From contig CAZUAZ010000001.1 in the NCBI GenBank assembly GCA_964618445.1, forward strand, positions 3,577-67,576: 64,000 bases of DNA, written 5' to 3'. Shown piece after piece: positions 1,565-31,821 of this stretch. The first letter of the stretch is position 1. Each line of letters starts with the position of its first letter. Made by a program: the position numbers and the translations under genes. The stretch comes from an uncultured Aquirufa sp. (GTDB taxonomy: Bacteria > Bacteroidota > Bacteroidia > Cytophagales > Spirosomataceae). The notes beneath the pieces were generated by a model. It was not told the origin of the DNA. It saw only the letters and a program-made list of their open reading frames with translations, and made no database searches.

Positions 1565-4020
1565 AAAACGAATTGAACAGGCTTTTTAACCTGCTCCGAT
1601 AACAAGGCAAGCGCCAACACTTCCGTTGCATGTTCCACATAATGGAATCGAAGATCAGCAATGTAATGAGGCTCAATCTCCTCTACATCCTTGCGGTTCT
1701 TTACACACATGATGATCTCCTTTATTCCAGCACGTTTAGCCGCCAAAATTTTCTCTTTAATTCCACCCACTGGGAGGACTTTCCCACGTAACGTAATTTC
1801 GCCAGTCATCGCTAAATTCGATTTTACACGGCGCTGTGTTAATGCCGAAGCAATGGCAGTTAACATGGTTATACCTGCTGATGGACCATCCTTTGGAACA
1901 GCTCCTGCAGGAACGTGAATATGTAAATTATACTGATCAAAAATTCGGTAATCAATGCCGTAATCATCCGCATGTGCCTTCAAGAAACTTAAGGCTGCAA
2001 CTGCTGACTCCTTCATCACATCACCCAGCTGCCCTGATAATGTCAGCTGCCCTTTACCTTTATTCAGTAGCGTTTCGATAAATAAAATATCACCACCCAC
2101 AGGCGTCCAAGCCAAACCAGTGACCACACCGGCATAGTCATTATTCTCGTACGAATCATTTTCAAATACCTCTTGGCCTAACATCCGAACGATGTCAGCA
2201 GGTACCACTTTGGCTGGAAAGGTTTCCCCGATGGCAATCGATTTAGTAATCTTACGAACGACACGCCCAATCTCTTGCTCCAGTTTCCGCACGCCTGATT
2301 CGCGTGTATATCCTTCGATTAATTTTTGGATTGCTGCATCAGATAAAGTAAAGCTTGACTTTTCTAAGCCATGCTCCGATTTCTGCTTAGGTATCAAATG
2401 TTTTTTAGCAATCTGCACCTTTTCCTCCATGGTGTACCCACTCACCTCAATGATTTCCATCCGATCACGCAAAGCTGGATGAATCGTATCCAGATTATTT
2501 GCTGTCGCGATAAACATCACACGCGACAAATCGTATTCTACTTCGAGATAATTATCTAAAAAACTATTGTTTTGCTCTGGATCCAACACCTCTAATAAGG
2601 CAGATTGTGGATCACCCCGATGATCTCCTCCTACCTTATCAATCTCATCTAAGATGAATACGGGATTGGACGACCCTGCCTTTTTAATGTTTTGAATCAC
2701 TTTTCCCGGCATCGCACCTATGTAGGTTTTCCGGTGTCCACGAATCTCGGACTCATCATGCAAACCACCTAAGGCCATGCGGACATATTTGCGCCCAAGG
2801 GCCTTGGCTACGGATCGACCCAAAGAAGTTTTCCCCACACCTGGAGGGCCGTAAAGGCATAAAATCGGGGCTTTCATGTCACCCTTCATTTTCAAAACTG
2901 CCAAATATTCAATGATGCGCTCTTTGACTTTTTCCAAGCCAAAATGATCAGCATCCAATACCTTTTTTGCCTTTATCAGATCAAAATTATCTTTCGAATA
3001 TTCCGACCATGGCAAGTCTACCAAAAGCTCCACATAATTCATGAGCATCGGGTATTCGGGCGACATAGAATTGGTGCGCTGTAATTTGGCAAGCTCCTTA
3101 TGAAAGAAATCATTGACCTCTTTCGTCCATTTTTTCTTTGCTGCCTTCGCACGCAATCCATCTAGTTCCTGCTCTGGACTCTCCACACCTAACTCTTCTT
3201 GTAAAACTTTGATTTGTTGGCGTATGTAATAATCCCGCTGCTGCTGATCAATATCACTCGATGCTTTACTTTGTATTTCGCGTTTCAACTCAAGTAATTG
3301 GATGTCGGTGAGCATGTGCTCCAACAACCTCGTTGCTTGCTCAATCCCGTCAAGTATCTCTAACAAGGCCTGCTTTTCGATTAATTCCGCGTTGATATTG
3401 GATGACAAGAAATGCACCAAATACGAATTGGATTCTATATTATCGAGTGCAATTTGAGCCTCCCGCGGAATCTCAGGATTTAAGTTTAAAATCTTAGTCG
3501 CGTTTTCCTTGAGCGTTGAAATCAAGGCTTTGTTTTCCTTATTCAATTTCTTCGGAAAGGTATCTTCAATGTAGGCTACTTTTGCGATTAAATTAGGTTC
3601 GGTTTTGATGTAATCTTTTACTTCAAATCGCTTGCGACCCTGGACAATAATAGTCGTATTCCCGCCTGGCAACACAAACATTTTTATGATGTGACCTACG
3701 GTTCCAATCTTATACAAATCGTCCGGCTGGGGTTCTTCCTTAGAATTATTGGCTTGCACCAAAACGCCGATCGTCCGATCACCTTTGTATGCTTTCTTAA
3801 CAAGTCGAACGGATTTTTGACGGCTTACCGTAATCGGAATAACCATCCCAGGAAACAAAACAATGTTTCGAATCGGAAGTATCGGTAGTTCATCTGACAA
3901 AACGCCCATTTTGTCATCTTGCCCCATCCCCTCTGATCCGATCGGGATCAATTCTATATTCTCAAAATCAGACATGTCTGATAAGCGCAAATGCTTAAAA
4001 AGGTCGTTTGAATTATTCAT
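1525..4020 (-). CDS. lon: ATP-dependent Lon protease
   Basis: LON N-domain LPILPIRNIVLFPG, Walker A GPPGVGKT, catalytic PKDGPSAG, and KILAA. ATG at 4020 preferred over GTG at 4026. Confidence 0.97.
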   Translation of the reverse strand: MNNSNDLFKHLRLSDMSDFENIELIPIGSEGMGQDDKMGVLSDELPILPIRNIVLFPGMVIPITVSRQKSVRLVKKAYKGDRTIGVLVQANNSKEEPQPDDLYKIGTVGHIIKMFVLPGGNTTIIVQGRKRFEVKDYIKTEPNLIAKVAYIEDTFPKKLNKENKALISTLKENATKILNLNPEIPREAQIALDNIESNSYLVHFLSSNINAELIEKQALLEILDGIEQATRLLEHMLTDIQLLELKREIQSKASSDIDQQQRDYYIRQQIKVLQEELGVESPEQELDGLRAKAAKKKWTKEVNDFFHKELAKLQRTNSMSPEYPMLMNYVELLVDLPWSEYSKDNFDLIKAKKVLDADHFGLEKVKERIIEYLAVLKMKGDMKAPILCLYGPPGVGKTSLGRSVAKALGRKYVRMALGGLHDESEIRGHRKTYIGAMPGKVIQNIKKAGSSNPVFILDEIDKVGGDHRGDPQSALLEVLDPEQNNSFLDNYLEVEYDLSRVMFIATANNLDTIHPALRDRMEIIEVSGYTMEEKVQIAKKHLIPKQKSEHGLEKSSFTLSDAAIQKLIEGYTRESGVRKLEQEIGRVVRKITKSIAIGETFPAKVVPADIVRMLGQEVFENDSYENNDYAGVVTGLAWTPVGGDILFIETLLNKGKGQLTLSGQLGDVMKESAVAALSFLKAHADDYGIDYRIFDQYNLHIHVPAGAVPKDGPSAGITMLTAIASALTQRRVKSNLAMTGEITLRGKVLPVGGIKEKILAAKRAGIKEIIMCVKNRKDVEEIEPHYIADLRFHYVEHATEVLALALLSEQVKKPVQFVFQEETKAIVSAEV

Positions 4021-15958: not shown

Positions 15959-16996
15959 ATGATGAAAAAATACATAATTATTTGCTTCATAGGTATCGTA
16001 AGCCATAGCTTTGGTCAATGGGTGCCCGTTGAGATACCCACCAAATCGTCTTTTAGAGCCTTAAAGTCACTAGGTGATGAGATATGGGCAGGTGGTACGC
16101 AAGGTACATTTGGCCATTCATCAGATGCTGGAAAGACCTGGAGATTCATACAAATTCCGGGTGCTGAGAAACTTGATTTCCGAGATCTCGTTATTCTTAA
16201 TAAACAAGAAGTATTACTCATGAGTGCGGGGCTATCTGAAGAAGGGAAAGCGAGTATTTGGCGTACTCAAGATGCTGGCGACAATTGGAAAATAGTATTT
16301 GAAAAGAAGGATCCTGGATTCTTCTTTGATTGTATAAAATGGGATAATAGCCTCCAAGAAGGCTGGCTTTTAGCCGATCCAATCCAACAAAAACTCACCT
16401 TGTTCCAAATAAGAAACAATATTTTCACACTGATTGACACAACAAATACGCCACAACTTCAAACTAAAGAAGCTTTCTTTGCAGCTAGTGGCTCAAGTTT
16501 AAGTATGCAAGGCAATCATTTATTACTTGCAGGCGGTGGTGGCATGTTTGCTCGAATTTACCAAAAACGTAATCAAAAATCAGCGTGGTCTTATACAGAG
16601 ACTAACATTCCAACCGGGGAAGCCAAAGGGTATTTTTCAATTGGTTCAAAAAATAAGAAAACATTATGGGCTGTAGGTGGAGATTACCGAAAGTTAAATG
16701 AAAGTTCCATCCCAATATTGACAACGCAGGATGGTGGGAAAAGCTGGCAGGAATTAAATAATACTCCCCCTTTCTACATGGAAAAGGTGATTTGGGCTAA
16801 ACCATATTGGATTGTATCCGGACCCAGTCAAAGCGCGGCCTATCATGAAAAAAAGAAACAATGGAAAATCTTAGGTCCTAGCTCCTATCACAATATCATA
16901 CAAGTAGGAGAAGAAATCTGGGGAATCGGAGCGAAAGGCCAATTAGGGAAAATCAGCCTTTCGTCGATTGATAAATTATTTCTTGCGGAAAAATAA
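15959..16996 (+). CDS. YCF48/BNR-repeat beta-propeller protein
   Basis: Asp-box repeats SSDAGKTW, TQDAGDNW and TQDGGKSW, plus FAASG and VGGDY. Signal peptide present. Confidence 0.75.
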   Translation: MMKKYIIICFIGIVSHSFGQWVPVEIPTKSSFRALKSLGDEIWAGGTQGTFGHSSDAGKTWRFIQIPGAEKLDFRDLVILNKQEVLLMSAGLSEEGKASIWRTQDAGDNWKIVFEKKDPGFFFDCIKWDNSLQEGWLLADPIQQKLTLFQIRNNIFTLIDTTNTPQLQTKEAFFAASGSSLSMQGNHLLLAGGGGMFARIYQKRNQKSAWSYTETNIPTGEAKGYFSIGSKNKKTLWAVGGDYRKLNESSIPILTTQDGGKSWQELNNTPPFYMEKVIWAKPYWIVSGPSQSAAYHEKKKQWKILGPSSYHNIIQVGEEIWGIGAKGQLGKISLSSIDKLFLAEK

Positions 16997-19311: not shown

Positions 19312-19384
<73 letters not shown>

Positions 19385-19425
19385 CTGAGTAAAAAGGTCT
19401 TCAATCGAAGACCTTTTTACATTTT
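19385..19425 (+). repeat. Direct repeat copy 1 (41 bp identical to 19743..19783), containing the terminator
   Basis: CTGAGTAAAAAGGTCTTCAATCGAAGACCTTTTTACATTTT occurs twice, 358 bp apart. Confidence 0.95.
19389..19420. terminator. Bidirectional terminator after tRNA-fMet
   Basis: Perfect 14-bp stem GTAAAAAGGTCTTC-AATC-GAAGACCTTTTTAC. Confidence 0.85.
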
Positions 19426-19446: not shown

Positions 19447-19689
19447 ATGTATGTATCTTATGCACTTTATTCGGAAAAATTCGATATCCTATATATTGGG
19501 TATACCCAAGATTTAATCAGCAGATTCCACTCCCATAATTCATTGGCAAAGAGTGGATTTACAGTGAAATACAGACCGTGGAAAGTGATTTATGTTGATT
19601 TTTTAAAAACTAAAATAGCGGCTATGCGAAGAGAAAAAGAATTAAAATCGAATAGAGGTAGAATGTTTCTCCGAGATTTAATCAAATAG
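19447..19689 (+). CDS. Small stand-alone GIY-YIG nuclease family protein
   Basis: YALYS...LYIGYT.DL..R...HN...FT.KYRPW...A..RE.ELK pattern. Confidence 0.9.
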   Translation: MYVSYALYSEKFDILYIGYTQDLISRFHSHNSLAKSGFTVKYRPWKVIYVDFLKTKIAAMRREKELKSNRGRMFLRDLIK

Positions 19690-19742
19690 CTCGTGGACTC
19701 ATATCCGTCAGCTGACGGACGTCCGTTCCCGTCTGGCCCCCC
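19687..19742 (+). pseudogene. Degenerate 3' fragment of tRNA-fMet with a palindrome replacing part of the anticodon arm
   Basis: TAGCTCGT-GGACTCATA[TCCGTCAGCTGACGGA]CGTCCGTTCCCGTCTGGCCCCC aligns to tRNA 19331..19380. Confidence 0.85.
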
Positions 19743-19783
19743 CTGAGTAAAAAGGTCTTCAATCGAAGACCTTTTTACATTTT
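19743..19783 (+). repeat. Direct repeat copy 2 with duplicated terminator (19747..19778)
   Basis: 41/41 identical to 19385..19425. Confidence 0.95.
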
Positions 19784-30175: not shown

Positions 30176-31821
30176 GATTTACGAAAAAGAGGTACTTCTT
30201 TATTTTCAGCTTGGTGCTAGGGATTTCGTTAGCATCAGCTTCGTTCGTTGCCACCAATGATCGATTATTTGAAATTGCCAAAAATCTTGACATCTACGCA
30301 TCTGTTTTTAAAGAACTGAACAAGTATTATGTGGATGAAGTAGATCCTCAAAAGGCCATGCAAACATCCGTGGATGCATTACTTAAATCATTCGACCCTT
30401 ACACCGTTTTTTATCCAGAGGATGAGCTGGAAGACTTTTTGTTAATGACAACAGGTAAGTACCAAGGGATTGGTATTCAGCTCAGCGAGATTAATCAACA
30501 ACATCACATTACTTTTATTGAGTCAGATAGTCCTGCTGAAAAAGCTGGATTACAGATTGGCGATCAACTCATCGCGATCAATGACATACGCATCACATCC
30601 AAAACAGAAACAGATCCTGCCCAACTAATGAAGGGGGCGGCAAATGCCCCTTTGGTGATCGAAATACAAAGACCTGGGGTGCAAAGCACGCAAAAAATAA
30701 CCTTGACACGTGCCACTGTTCAGATTAAAAATGTTAGCTATTTTGGGATAATCCAACCAGGAATCGGATACATACAATTGGACGAATTCAACGCTAGTGC
30801 AGCGAAAGAGATGAAAAGTGCGCTAGTTTCCCTAAAACAACAAGGGATGAAGTCCCTCATGTTAGATTTACGAAATAATCCAGGTGGACTCCTTACTCAG
30901 GCCATTGACATTTGTAATTTGTTCCTACCCAAGGGAACAAAAATTGTTGAAACGCGTGGTAAAATTGAAGAATGGAATAAATCCTATGCGGGACTAAACG
31001 CCAGCTTTGATACCGAAACACCCATGGTTGTTTTGATCAATAAAAATTCAGCCTCTGCAGCAGAAATTGTAGCAGGTGTTTTACAAGATTATGATCGGGC
31101 GGTCATTATCGGTCAAAAAAGTTATGGCAAAGGACTTGTGCAGGTCACACGTGATTTGCCTTTTCACACCAAAATTAAAATCACGACAGCAAAATATTAT
31201 ACGCCAAGTGGCCGCTGTATTCAAGCTGTCGAGTACAAAAATGGATCAGCGATCACACATGCGGATTCAACGAATCGCACATTTCTGACTAAAAATGGGC
31301 GTAAAGTAGTGGAAGGTGGGGGAATTACACCCGATCAGGTTGTGCATAAATCACAGCAGTCGTCCTTCATACACGCACTACTGAAACAGTATAAAATATA
31401 TCTTTTCGCGCTAGCCTATCGAATCAAAAATCCAAGCATTTCACCAGCAGCAAAATTTGAATTAACGAAATCAGATCTTGCAAGCTTCGAATCTTGGCTA
31501 ATGCAAAGTGACTTTACCTTCGAAAGTACCGTTCAATCCCAAGTAAAAACCTTGCTAGCCGCTACCGAAAAAGACCCAGTCTATGCCACGTTGCGTCAGT
31601 CTTTACTGGCGTCAAAGGCTGGGGAAAAAATTACCTTACATCAAGAGATTCAAGCTAATCAAGAGGAATTGAAACAATTGATAAGCCAAGAAATTATTTT
31701 ACACTATTATTTGCAAAAAGGGGTGAATCAATGGGCGAACACCCATGATCCTATCATTCAAGTGGGAGAATCCTTATTGCAGAAACCAGATAAGTTCCAG
31801 TCCATTTTGACGTCAAAATAA
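30172..31821 (+). CDS. S41 carboxyl-terminal processing protease (PDZ)
   Basis: DPYT, DLRNNPGG, SASAAEI and SYGKGLVQ motifs. Confidence 0.93.
   Translation: MRFTKKRYFFIFSLVLGISLASASFVATNDRLFEIAKNLDIYASVFKELNKYYVDEVDPQKAMQTSVDALLKSFDPYTVFYPEDELEDFLLMTTGKYQGIGIQLSEINQQHHITFIESDSPAEKAGLQIGDQLIAINDIRITSKTETDPAQLMKGAANAPLVIEIQRPGVQSTQKITLTRATVQIKNVSYFGIIQPGIGYIQLDEFNASAAKEMKSALVSLKQQGMKSLMLDLRNNPGGLLTQAIDICNLFLPKGTKIVETRGKIEEWNKSYAGLNASFDTETPMVVLINKNSASAAEIVAGVLQDYDRAVIIGQKSYGKGLVQVTRDLPFHTKIKITTAKYYTPSGRCIQAVEYKNGSAITHADSTNRTFLTKNGRKVVEGGGITPDQVVHKSQQSSFIHALLKQYKIYLFALAYRIKNPSISPAAKFELTKSDLASFESWLMQSDFTFESTVQSQVKTLLAATEKDPVYATLRQSLLASKAGEKITLHQEIQANQEELKQLISQEIILHYYLQKGVNQWANTHDPIIQVGESLLQKPDKFQSILTSK

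Follow-up and report, generated by a model that had tools for sequence, protein, structure and literature searches.

A GIY-YIG nuclease gene and a conserved hairpin in disabled tRNA(CAT) copies of Bacteroidota, a probable Ssn-like pairing of enzyme and site

Among described systems, the Ssn nucleases, published in 2025 (PMC11893778), come closest to the locus reported here. In Neisseria, the 94-aa enzyme SsnA, made up of one GIY-YIG domain, binds an oriented hairpin repeat, NTS, as single-stranded DNA only and cuts a few bases upstream of it (Chenal et al., Nat Commun 2025, PMC11893778). Binding depends above all on the C that follows the palindrome; the loop can be dispensed with, and altering the stem sequence while preserving the hairpin abolishes activity (PMC11893778). 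RNA is not bound by SsnA, and ssn genes typically have their hairpins on their flanks (PMC11893778). The word tRNA does not occur in that paper, and a literature search found no publication on a tRNA linkage of an Ssn-type nuclease. Here we analysed 64,000 nucleotides (the window) from an uncultured Aquirufa sp. of the Bacteroidota (assembly GCA_964618445.1, contig CAZUAZ010000001.1; host genome 2.1 Mb, 81% complete), in which the gene of an 80-aa GIY-YIG nuclease is followed by a disabled initiator tRNA copy carrying the perfect 16-bp palindrome TCCGTCAGCTGACGGA. Given that this hairpin is conserved amid the decay of the tRNA copy, linked to the nuclease gene in position and strand, co-divergent with it and laid out as in ssnA, we consider it, by analogy with SsnA, to be probably the nuclease's cognate single-strand DNA hairpin and a cis element of a cassette that is linked to tRNA(CAT) genes and amplifies in tandem. 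The features of the locus, in window positions, are as follows.

19312-19385, plus strand: intact initiator-type tRNA-Met(CAT), the functional gene upstream of the cassette (ARAGORN; Rfam tRNA, 61 bits)
19385-19425, plus strand: 41-bp block with an intrinsic terminator hairpin, first copy, identical to 19743-19783
19447-19689, plus strand: gene of the 80-aa single-domain GIY-YIG nuclease, an Ssn-type homologue (Pfam PF01541, BLASTP, hidden Markov model (HMM) of the clade)
19687-19703, plus strand: pseudo-tRNA 5' segment, from the 3' strand of the D stem to A37 (sequence, alignment with relatives)
19704-19719, plus strand: hairpin TCCGTCAGCTGACGGA, stem TCCGTC/GACGGA, loop AGCT, substituting for tRNA positions 38-47
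19715-19726, no strand assigned: second palindrome ACGGACGTCCGT, a perfect 12-mer, incidental and lineage-specific
19720-19742, plus strand: decayed remainder of the tRNA copy, comprising T arm and acceptor 3' side (sequence)
19743-19783, plus strand: second, identical copy of the 41-bp terminator block, closing a 358-bp repeat period (sequence)

Three G-C pairs in the anticodon stem mark the tRNA-Met(CAT) gene as initiator type. It gave a single close match in the genome, the other tRNA-like match being 82% identical, and an elongator tRNA-Met resembling the latter occurs at loci of the same genus. Directly after A37, ten tRNA bases (ACCCAAAGGT, positions 38-47) are swapped for the hairpin: the tRNA reads CTCATA, ACCCAAAGGT, CGTCAGTTC and the copy reads CTCATA, TCCGTCAGCTGACGGA, CGTCCGTTC. 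The copy lacks positions 1 to ~20, the 5' third of the tRNA, and the first three bases of its start (TAGCTCG, 19687) double as the nuclease stop codon, 14 nt upstream of the hairpin on the same strand. Its 5' segment differs from the tRNA by one deletion and one substitution, and C19720, the first base of the T-arm remnant, is the conserved C found 3' of the hairpin. Outside the hairpin the pseudo-tRNA shows ~6 small changes in 47 nt, while the hairpin agrees with the consensus at 16/16 positions. The palindrome and the nuclease gene are each single-copy in the genome, and Rfam returned no family match for the pseudo-tRNA. Inspection thus bore out what a sequence-only reading of this DNA had reported of the coordinates, both perfect palindromes, the A>C change that creates the second, the unchanged terminator (the two 41-bp blocks are identical) and the smallness of the other differences. 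That reading had also likened the breakpoint to the archaeal and eukaryotic tRNA intron site at 37/38; the parallel is coincidental, as ten bases are deleted, the copy lacks its 5' third and other cassettes use other arms. The boundary falls at 37/38 because the hairpin abuts the anticodon loop.

Further described systems resemble this unit in part. SegB of phage T4/T6, a free-standing GIY-YIG homing endonuclease of the tRNA gene cluster, is reported to be a phage-borne, site-specific enzyme that leaves mostly 2-nt 3' overhangs (PMC2330249). It shares with the present locus a GIY-YIG domain, a gene lying among or next to tRNA genes, a presence that varies between relatives, and a tie to segmental amplification of its neighbourhood (PMC2330249; PMC13096335), whereas neither a signature hairpin nor a tRNA pseudo-copy is described for it there (PMC2330249). 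The nuclease studied here differs as well in being a bare 80-aa catalytic domain encoded in a chromosomal cassette. SegB, as a GIY-YIG homing endonuclease, is larger and includes a DNA-binding part. REP/BIME elements with RAYT, and IS200/IS605 elements, also combine a small nuclease gene with short GC-rich hairpins, have solo hairpins elsewhere in the genome, and have these recognised strand-specifically as single-stranded DNA, as may hold here by analogy. The RAYT and IS200/IS605 enzymes are HUH/Y1 transposases with covalent intermediates, whereas a GIY-YIG nuclease is incapable alone of strand transfer, and the copies found here are few and tied to tRNA genes. Islands whose integrase duplicates a tRNA 3' end likewise leave a partial tRNA copy downstream of the intact gene; the present unit is distinguished by its 358-bp length, by ten tRNA bases having given way to a conserved foreign hairpin, and by tandem repetition, and the 80-aa nuclease is its sole open reading frame (ORF), with no integrase gene.

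The protein itself points to Ssn. Pfam PF01541 covers residues 2-72 of its 80 (E 3.5e-14), with no additional DNA-binding domain. BLASTP against the gonococcal SsnA ORF gave a gapless alignment at 37% identity (pairwise E 2e-12) in which Y5, Y16 and E63 align with the catalytic Y6, Y17 and E64, and an HMM of the tRNA-linked clade scored 53.8 bits to SsnA versus 7.6 bits to the UvrC of the host genome. Against the whole 7.3-Gb database the SsnA match has E 8e-4, which is weaker than the 1e-10 cut-off of PMC11893778. NCBIfam and PHROGs returned no match for the protein, and a sequence search of the PDB gave weak matches to SLX1 and UPF0213 and nothing else. The gonococcal ORF was found by tblastn of a plasmid collection that includes two gonococcal chromosomes; the best Neisseria match is a 94-aa ORF with Y6, Y17 and E64, in agreement with PMC11893778. 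Its 3.2-kb neighbourhood contains 11 NTS repeats, where 0 are expected, and one of these follows the stop codon at a distance of 2 nt, in the same orientation. Both systems therefore have a single-domain GIY-YIG protein of ~80-94 aa with catalytic Tyr, Tyr and Glu at equal spacing, a GC-rich hairpin right after the stop codon on the same strand, a constrained stem with a free loop and a 3' C, and, in some cassettes, hairpins on both sides of the gene. They differ in that the Bacteroidota hairpin is built into tRNA(CAT) pseudo-copies at a defined segment and its units form tandem arrays. We also observed that the collection lists two chromosomes of Neisseria gonorrhoeae, of 2.17 Mb, as plasmids, and that the ssnA-like ORF within the stretch 1880222-1883410 of NZ_CP119142.1 has ATT at the expected start with no in-frame ATG, GTG or TTG. 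More distant GIY-YIG paralogues of the order (L052, L060, L046) have a recurrent motif downstream beginning GTCATTGCGAGCG, the first bases of which are similar to the conserved sequence 5' of the Neisseria NTS, with the full published motif unmatched.

Within the genus, homologous units occur in G023, G012, G033, G002 and G007, their DNA being 68-88% identical to that of the window unit. All of them read CTCATA (CTCTTA in G002), the hairpin, and then CGTC or CATC. The homologous site is filled in G000, G023, G012, G033 and G002 and empty in G032 and many others; the empty site of G032 consists of tRNA, terminator and the same downstream flank, at 97% flank identity. Presence at one homologous site thus varies among close relatives, most of which are empty. 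Among 64 genomes of the genus, the exact 16-mer was found in 13, the clade nuclease in 11 and exact copies of both in 10, and the eleventh nuclease genome, G071, has the hairpin with one mismatch; 50 genomes have neither, and no hairpin-free genome has the nuclease. The hairpin is therefore clearly neither unique to this strain nor absent from homologous units, and the proposed search of the genome and its relatives did find it next to small GIY-YIG genes and within tRNA copies. The second palindrome fared otherwise: ACGGACGTCCGT rests on the A>C change, the homologous units of G023, G012, G033 and G002 read CGTCAG or CATCAG instead, and it lies in a decaying T arm; it is specific to the lineage, and four metagenome populations of this species carry it unchanged.

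Tandem units are present in several relatives: G063 has three beside tRNA-fMet, and in G007 five hairpin units are distributed to either side of the nuclease gene. In addition, the elongator tRNA-Met of G065, G022 and G063 is followed by 1-3 tandem 135-bp units without a nuclease gene, in which the same ten bases are swapped for the same 16-mer and the flanks match the local elongator tRNA. Initiator and elongator tRNA-Met share a 17-nt stretch around the replaced segment. Given that the elongator copies carry flanks of their local tRNA, we concluded that placement of the hairpin is site-specific and not merely inherited. As further observations, the spacers between solo hairpin units in G065 (L066 1450-1850), L076 and L078 are short degenerate repeats, GGACNTTAGAC, that resemble the 5' strand of the tRNA anticodon stem, and just downstream of the tRNA-Met arrays (L066 1850-2050 in G065; L076; L078) lies a family of ~40-nt tandem repeats, in at least 4 copies, with a hairpin formed by CCCCAGACT and AGTCTGGGG. 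Several nuclease copies contain in-frame stops or truncations (L008 G033:C91:3336-3572; the L250 and L268 arrays), as expected for decaying cassettes.

These comparisons bear on whether the palindrome could have arisen by chance, through random decay of a duplicated tRNA fragment. About 1.5 perfect palindromes of at least 16 bp are expected in the 64-kb window and three are present, of which one is GC-rich (0.11 expected); from the window alone, TCCGTCAGCTGACGGA is only mildly unusual and chance is compatible with the statistics. The other two, ATCAGACATGTCTGAT and ATTTTGACGTCAAAAT at 3967-3982 and 31804-31819, are AT-rich and their number fits chance. The significance of TCCGTCAGCTGACGGA comes from its conservation elsewhere and not from window statistics: it recurs at a fixed tRNA position in dozens of species and in two tRNA genes, including all homologous units of the genus and the stretches, at least 120 in number, described below. 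Conservation refutes random decay, as the sequence-only reading had held, and leaves chance a negligible probability.

Outside the genus, the initiator-tRNA copies of G055, from another family of the same order (nuclease 44% identical), read CTCGTA, TCCGCCAGCTGGCGGA, CACTGG, with the hairpin at the same tRNA position, the T:A pair of the stem changed to C:G, and a different T stem. The idea that the hairpin is an inverted copy of the T stem (CGTCAG) was ruled out by this genome, in which the T stem is CACTGG and yet the hairpin is present. An exact-pattern scan of one genome per species returned at least 120 stretches with the hairpin pattern, from Flavobacteriales, Bacteroidales, Chitinophagales, Sphingobacteriales and Cytophagales, and, among the matches listed, a few contigs labelled Balneolota, Fidelibacterota and KSB1. 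In 95 units among these matches, stem pair 5 was T:A in 39 and C:G in 56 and never mixed, though the pattern permitted it, and the central four bases varied independently (AGCT 66, GGCT 20, AGCC 8, GGCC 1). The same pattern had 0 matches in 2.9 million viral contigs, which leaves carriage of the module by phages without support.

Because the pattern scan presupposes the hairpin, we also searched from the protein. In this sample 96 of 401 Bacteroidota genomes, from 66 of 180 genera, had the nuclease clade; the genes were often arrayed in tandem at a period of 350-420 bp, and a GC hairpin followed within ~70 nt after 37 of 44 ORF ends. The 22 non-redundant hairpins included stems TCCGCC/GGCGGA (16), TCCGTC/GACGGA (3), TCCGCT/AGCGGA (1) and TCCGTT/AACGGA (1); stems were complementary in 21, the remaining one having a single T-G pair, there were 12 different loops, of 3-4 nt, and the next base was C in 21 of the 22. 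In a 16-row alignment 100% of the cells of the 6-bp stem pair, with double-sided changes at two pairs (equalled by 0/500 shuffles), so that four stem positions are invariant and two covary, while the centres seen were AGCT, GGCT, AGCC, GGTT, GATT, AAAT and 3-nt loops. What is conserved is thus the 6-bp stem TCCGYC/GRCGGA, in which changes are compensatory, together with a loop of 3-4 nt that varies freely and a C on the 3' side. Since the central loop is free, the perfect 16-bp dyad of the window is one instance of stem plus loop, and the dyad symmetry emphasised in the sequence-only reading is not a conserved feature. An apparent series CAGCTG > CAGCCG > CGGCCG, taken for compensatory change in a duplex palindrome, was dropped when wider samples showed the free loop. 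The perfect dyad found here and in many relatives would suit a duplex site, holding CAGCTG and GACGTC, that a dimer or a restriction-modification enzyme binds as double-stranded DNA; the centre, however, varies freely and sometimes has three bases only, so neither the symmetry nor either restriction site is conserved, and loop variation largely refutes this explanation, which we hold to be very improbable.

The hairpin and the nuclease gene are closely linked. Among 80 loci from the matches listed, all 61 hairpin units with a nearby nuclease ORF have it on the same strand; in 46-48 of these 61 fewer than 60 nt separate the stop codon from the hairpin downstream of it (usually 14-18 nt), and 13 hairpin units lie upstream of a nuclease gene. 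In some units the ORF terminates inside the hairpin loop (AGC TGA). At L131, L132, L158, L172, L187, L192, L039 and L064 it was seen to read through the pseudo-anticodon and to end in ...GLISVS, with TGA in the loop. A fuller architecture occurs at L129, L189, L200, L152 and L164, where a tRNA 5' half, a hairpin and a short T-arm piece precede the intact tRNA and terminator, and the nuclease gene is followed by a short anticodon piece, a hairpin and the 3' part of the tRNA; the arrangement in the window could be derived from it by recombination between the two 5' halves. Gene and hairpin also diverge together: the stem type (T:A versus C:G) requires one change on the nuclease tree, a number as low being reached in 0/500 shuffles, and the residue after K[S/T] in the motif K-S-x-x-G-R is S, N or Q with T:A stems (24/24) and A, G or Y with C:G stems (47/47). 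As a lead from these alignments, stem pair 5 and this residue are a candidate specificity pair.

The same hairpin is found outside anticodon arms. A conserved intergenic terminator consists of GCCCA, the 16-mer and TGGGC in four species (L084, L095, L099, L098), with decayed versions in two more, and closer and more distant relatives have GCCCATCCGTTCGGTTGGGC at the orthologous terminator (L096, L097, L102). The two forms differ by a 6-nt insertion and a stem-perfecting T>A change, and by flank similarity the short form is nested among the long-form genomes, a pattern which suggests that the terminator hairpin may have been converted to cassette sequence more than once. At a second terminator-like site, in G007 (L247, G007:C38:4137) and G012 (L248, G012:C79:3210), the 16-mer stands between AGCCA and TGGCT, followed by a T run; this site adjoins a conserved segment of ~60 nt without an Rfam match. 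Elsewhere the same or sister hairpins occur in place of D arms or within T loops of tRNA copies. Extra, different GC hairpins were observed in the T loop (e.g. TCCCGATAGCTATCGGGA) or in the D-arm place of tRNA(CAT) copies at L136, L182, L202, L145, L197 and L194. Such copies suggest that several hairpin types, perhaps reflecting several nuclease specificities, are stacked in one tRNA copy. Related small GIY-YIG genes were also seen at tRNA-Pro(CGG) and tRNA-Val(TAC) (L043 in G039, L044 in G051), beside full-length tRNA-like copies with the D arm or the anticodon arm exchanged for a GC hairpin, which ARAGORN calls tRNAs (a 79-nt tRNA-Pro, and a tRNA-Ala with anticodon agc).

The D-arm, T-loop and terminator contexts argue against two options raised in the sequence-only reading, pure immunisation and a tRNA-mimic RNA. 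If a homing endonuclease targeted the native tRNA(CAT) at about positions 38-47, the hairpin might merely destroy the target in the gene-linked copy; this would fit the replaced ten bases being common to initiator and elongator tRNA-Met, the variable presence of the unit at one site among close relatives, and the reported cutting of tRNA genes by the GIY-YIG homing enzyme SegB of T4 (PMC2330249). However, an intact and presumably cleavable tRNA adjoins the gene, any disruption would do and yet one stem sequence, co-divergent with the nuclease, is found phylum-wide, the same hairpin recurs in D arms, T loops and terminators, and the 80-aa protein lacks any domain that would bind a long duplex target. 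We regard immunisation as distinctly unlikely. An RNA-level role, in which the hairpin acts in the 3' untranslated region of the nuclease mRNA or in a tRNA-like RNA (transcript stability, processing or tRNA mimicry), would accord with its constant place on the transcribed sense strand just past the stop codon, with the ORFs that end in the loop, with the T-arm-like segment and terminator that follow, and with compensatory stem changes, which suit RNA as well as single-stranded DNA. Set against this, the T arm and acceptor remnants are decayed in the window copy, truncated at about position 59 in upstream units and interrupted by hairpins elsewhere, hairpin units are also found where there is no ORF, ahead of the intact tRNA and at the tips of terminators, and G-T wobble is nearly absent where permitted (0/95 among the matches listed and 1/22). 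Moreover, no Rfam family matches, and the homologous SsnA does not bind RNA (PMC11893778). An RNA-level function is accordingly unlikely, tRNA mimicry included.

We therefore return to the hairpin as the nuclease's own site. Hairpin and nuclease gene would form the core of a small cassette with a tRNA(CAT) copy whose positions 38-47 are exchanged for the hairpin. If it behaves like SsnA of Neisseria, the nuclease would bind the hairpin only when the coding strand is single-stranded, as may happen when the DNA is replicated or taken up or when the tRNA operon is heavily transcribed, and would nick a few bases upstream of it, within the pseudo-anticodon stem and loop. As a further step, we infer that nicks between the real tRNA gene and its look-alike copy may provoke recombination, which could explain the tandem arrays, the solo units of the hairpin and the spread to the second tRNA(CAT) gene, as well as the overwritten similar terminator hairpins and the deletions ending in the hairpin loop. 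One such deletion is seen in G014, where a remnant (L009, G014:C55, ~16400-16470) has codon 11 of the nuclease running directly into base 2 of the loop of the hairpin (GAAAAA followed by GCTGACGGAC); it corresponds to 231 bp of the window (19480-19710) with 1-nt microhomology, and the loop looks like the point of breakage. As single-stranded DNA the hairpin TCCGTCAGCTGACGGA has a folding energy of -5.2 kcal/mol (z -3.1). The tRNA homology upstream of the hairpin varies from 5 to 24 nt, with no single boundary marking a cut site, and decay along tandem arrays is distal in 5-6 arrays and the opposite in 2-3.

Several observations weigh against this explanation. The published degenerate SRM motif has 0 matches in the window, the unit and loci L040-L063, so we do not call the hairpin a canonical SRM, and there is one hairpin copy here and at most about 7 in relatives, versus hundreds in Ssn systems. 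Because homology and layout match SsnA but the SRM motif and the copy number do not, we regard the nuclease as a putative divergent offshoot of the Ssn kind that has a hairpin of its own. When the surrounding 59 nt are folded, the minimum-energy structure does not contain the hairpin (z -0.33). The association of stem and residue and the covariation fit a single event, with one independent pair and a p-AU of 0.55 for one clade, and the G014 deletion ends in the hairpin loop and not at the cut position predicted from SsnA. In contigs of four metagenome studies the unit is present without joints, structural variants or hairpin variants, which gives no sign of ongoing mobility; nor does the model explain the first invasion of a naive tRNA gene. 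Finally, hairpin units without a detectable nuclease occur in G065 (99% complete), G067 and G022.

These solo units would also suit an autonomous mini-repeat, a self-propagating or template-switch palindrome of stable-RNA stem-loops with the nuclease a mere neighbour in a permissive niche, and so would the 16-mer's overwriting of a similar terminator hairpin, apparently more than once, and its presence at the second terminator-like site. Such a repeat is nevertheless distinctly improbable, given the gene-hairpin linkage in position and strand (61/61 among the matches listed), the stem type that follows the nuclease clade, the absence of the genus nuclease from hairpin-free genomes with the hairpin in nearly all nuclease genomes, and the same gene-hairpin layout at Neisseria ssnA. 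Of the options named in the sequence-only reading, the one we favour is accordingly a REP-like recognition or mobility signal for the adjacent nuclease: the hairpin is conserved, linked, co-divergent and SsnA-like.

Together, the data describe a large Bacteroidota branch of the Ssn family, present in about a quarter of the sampled genomes, in a recurrent design that links tRNA genes to a recently found group of nucleases that cut single-stranded DNA. The hairpin of this branch, rather than being dispersed, holds a fixed position in disabled tRNA(CAT) copies, and its units amplify in tandem. This matters for annotation, in which tRNA copies with such a hairpin at times pass for unusual tRNAs; for biochemistry, a simple, defined substrate would be CTCATA followed by a 6-bp stem, a loop of any sequence and a C. 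The units further offer a natural system for asking whether duplication and gene conversion are driven by single-strand nicks made next to an essential gene. It is possible, though we put it forward tentatively, that they are a distinct class of selfish cassette, which copies a tRNA gene with a hairpin in place of one arm, amplifies in tandem next to the intact gene, hops between tRNA genes that share a short target, and has a hairpin that overwrites compatible stem-loops such as terminators. If so, this would be hairpin-guided mobility by means of a GIY-YIG nuclease and host repair, without a transposase or an integrase.

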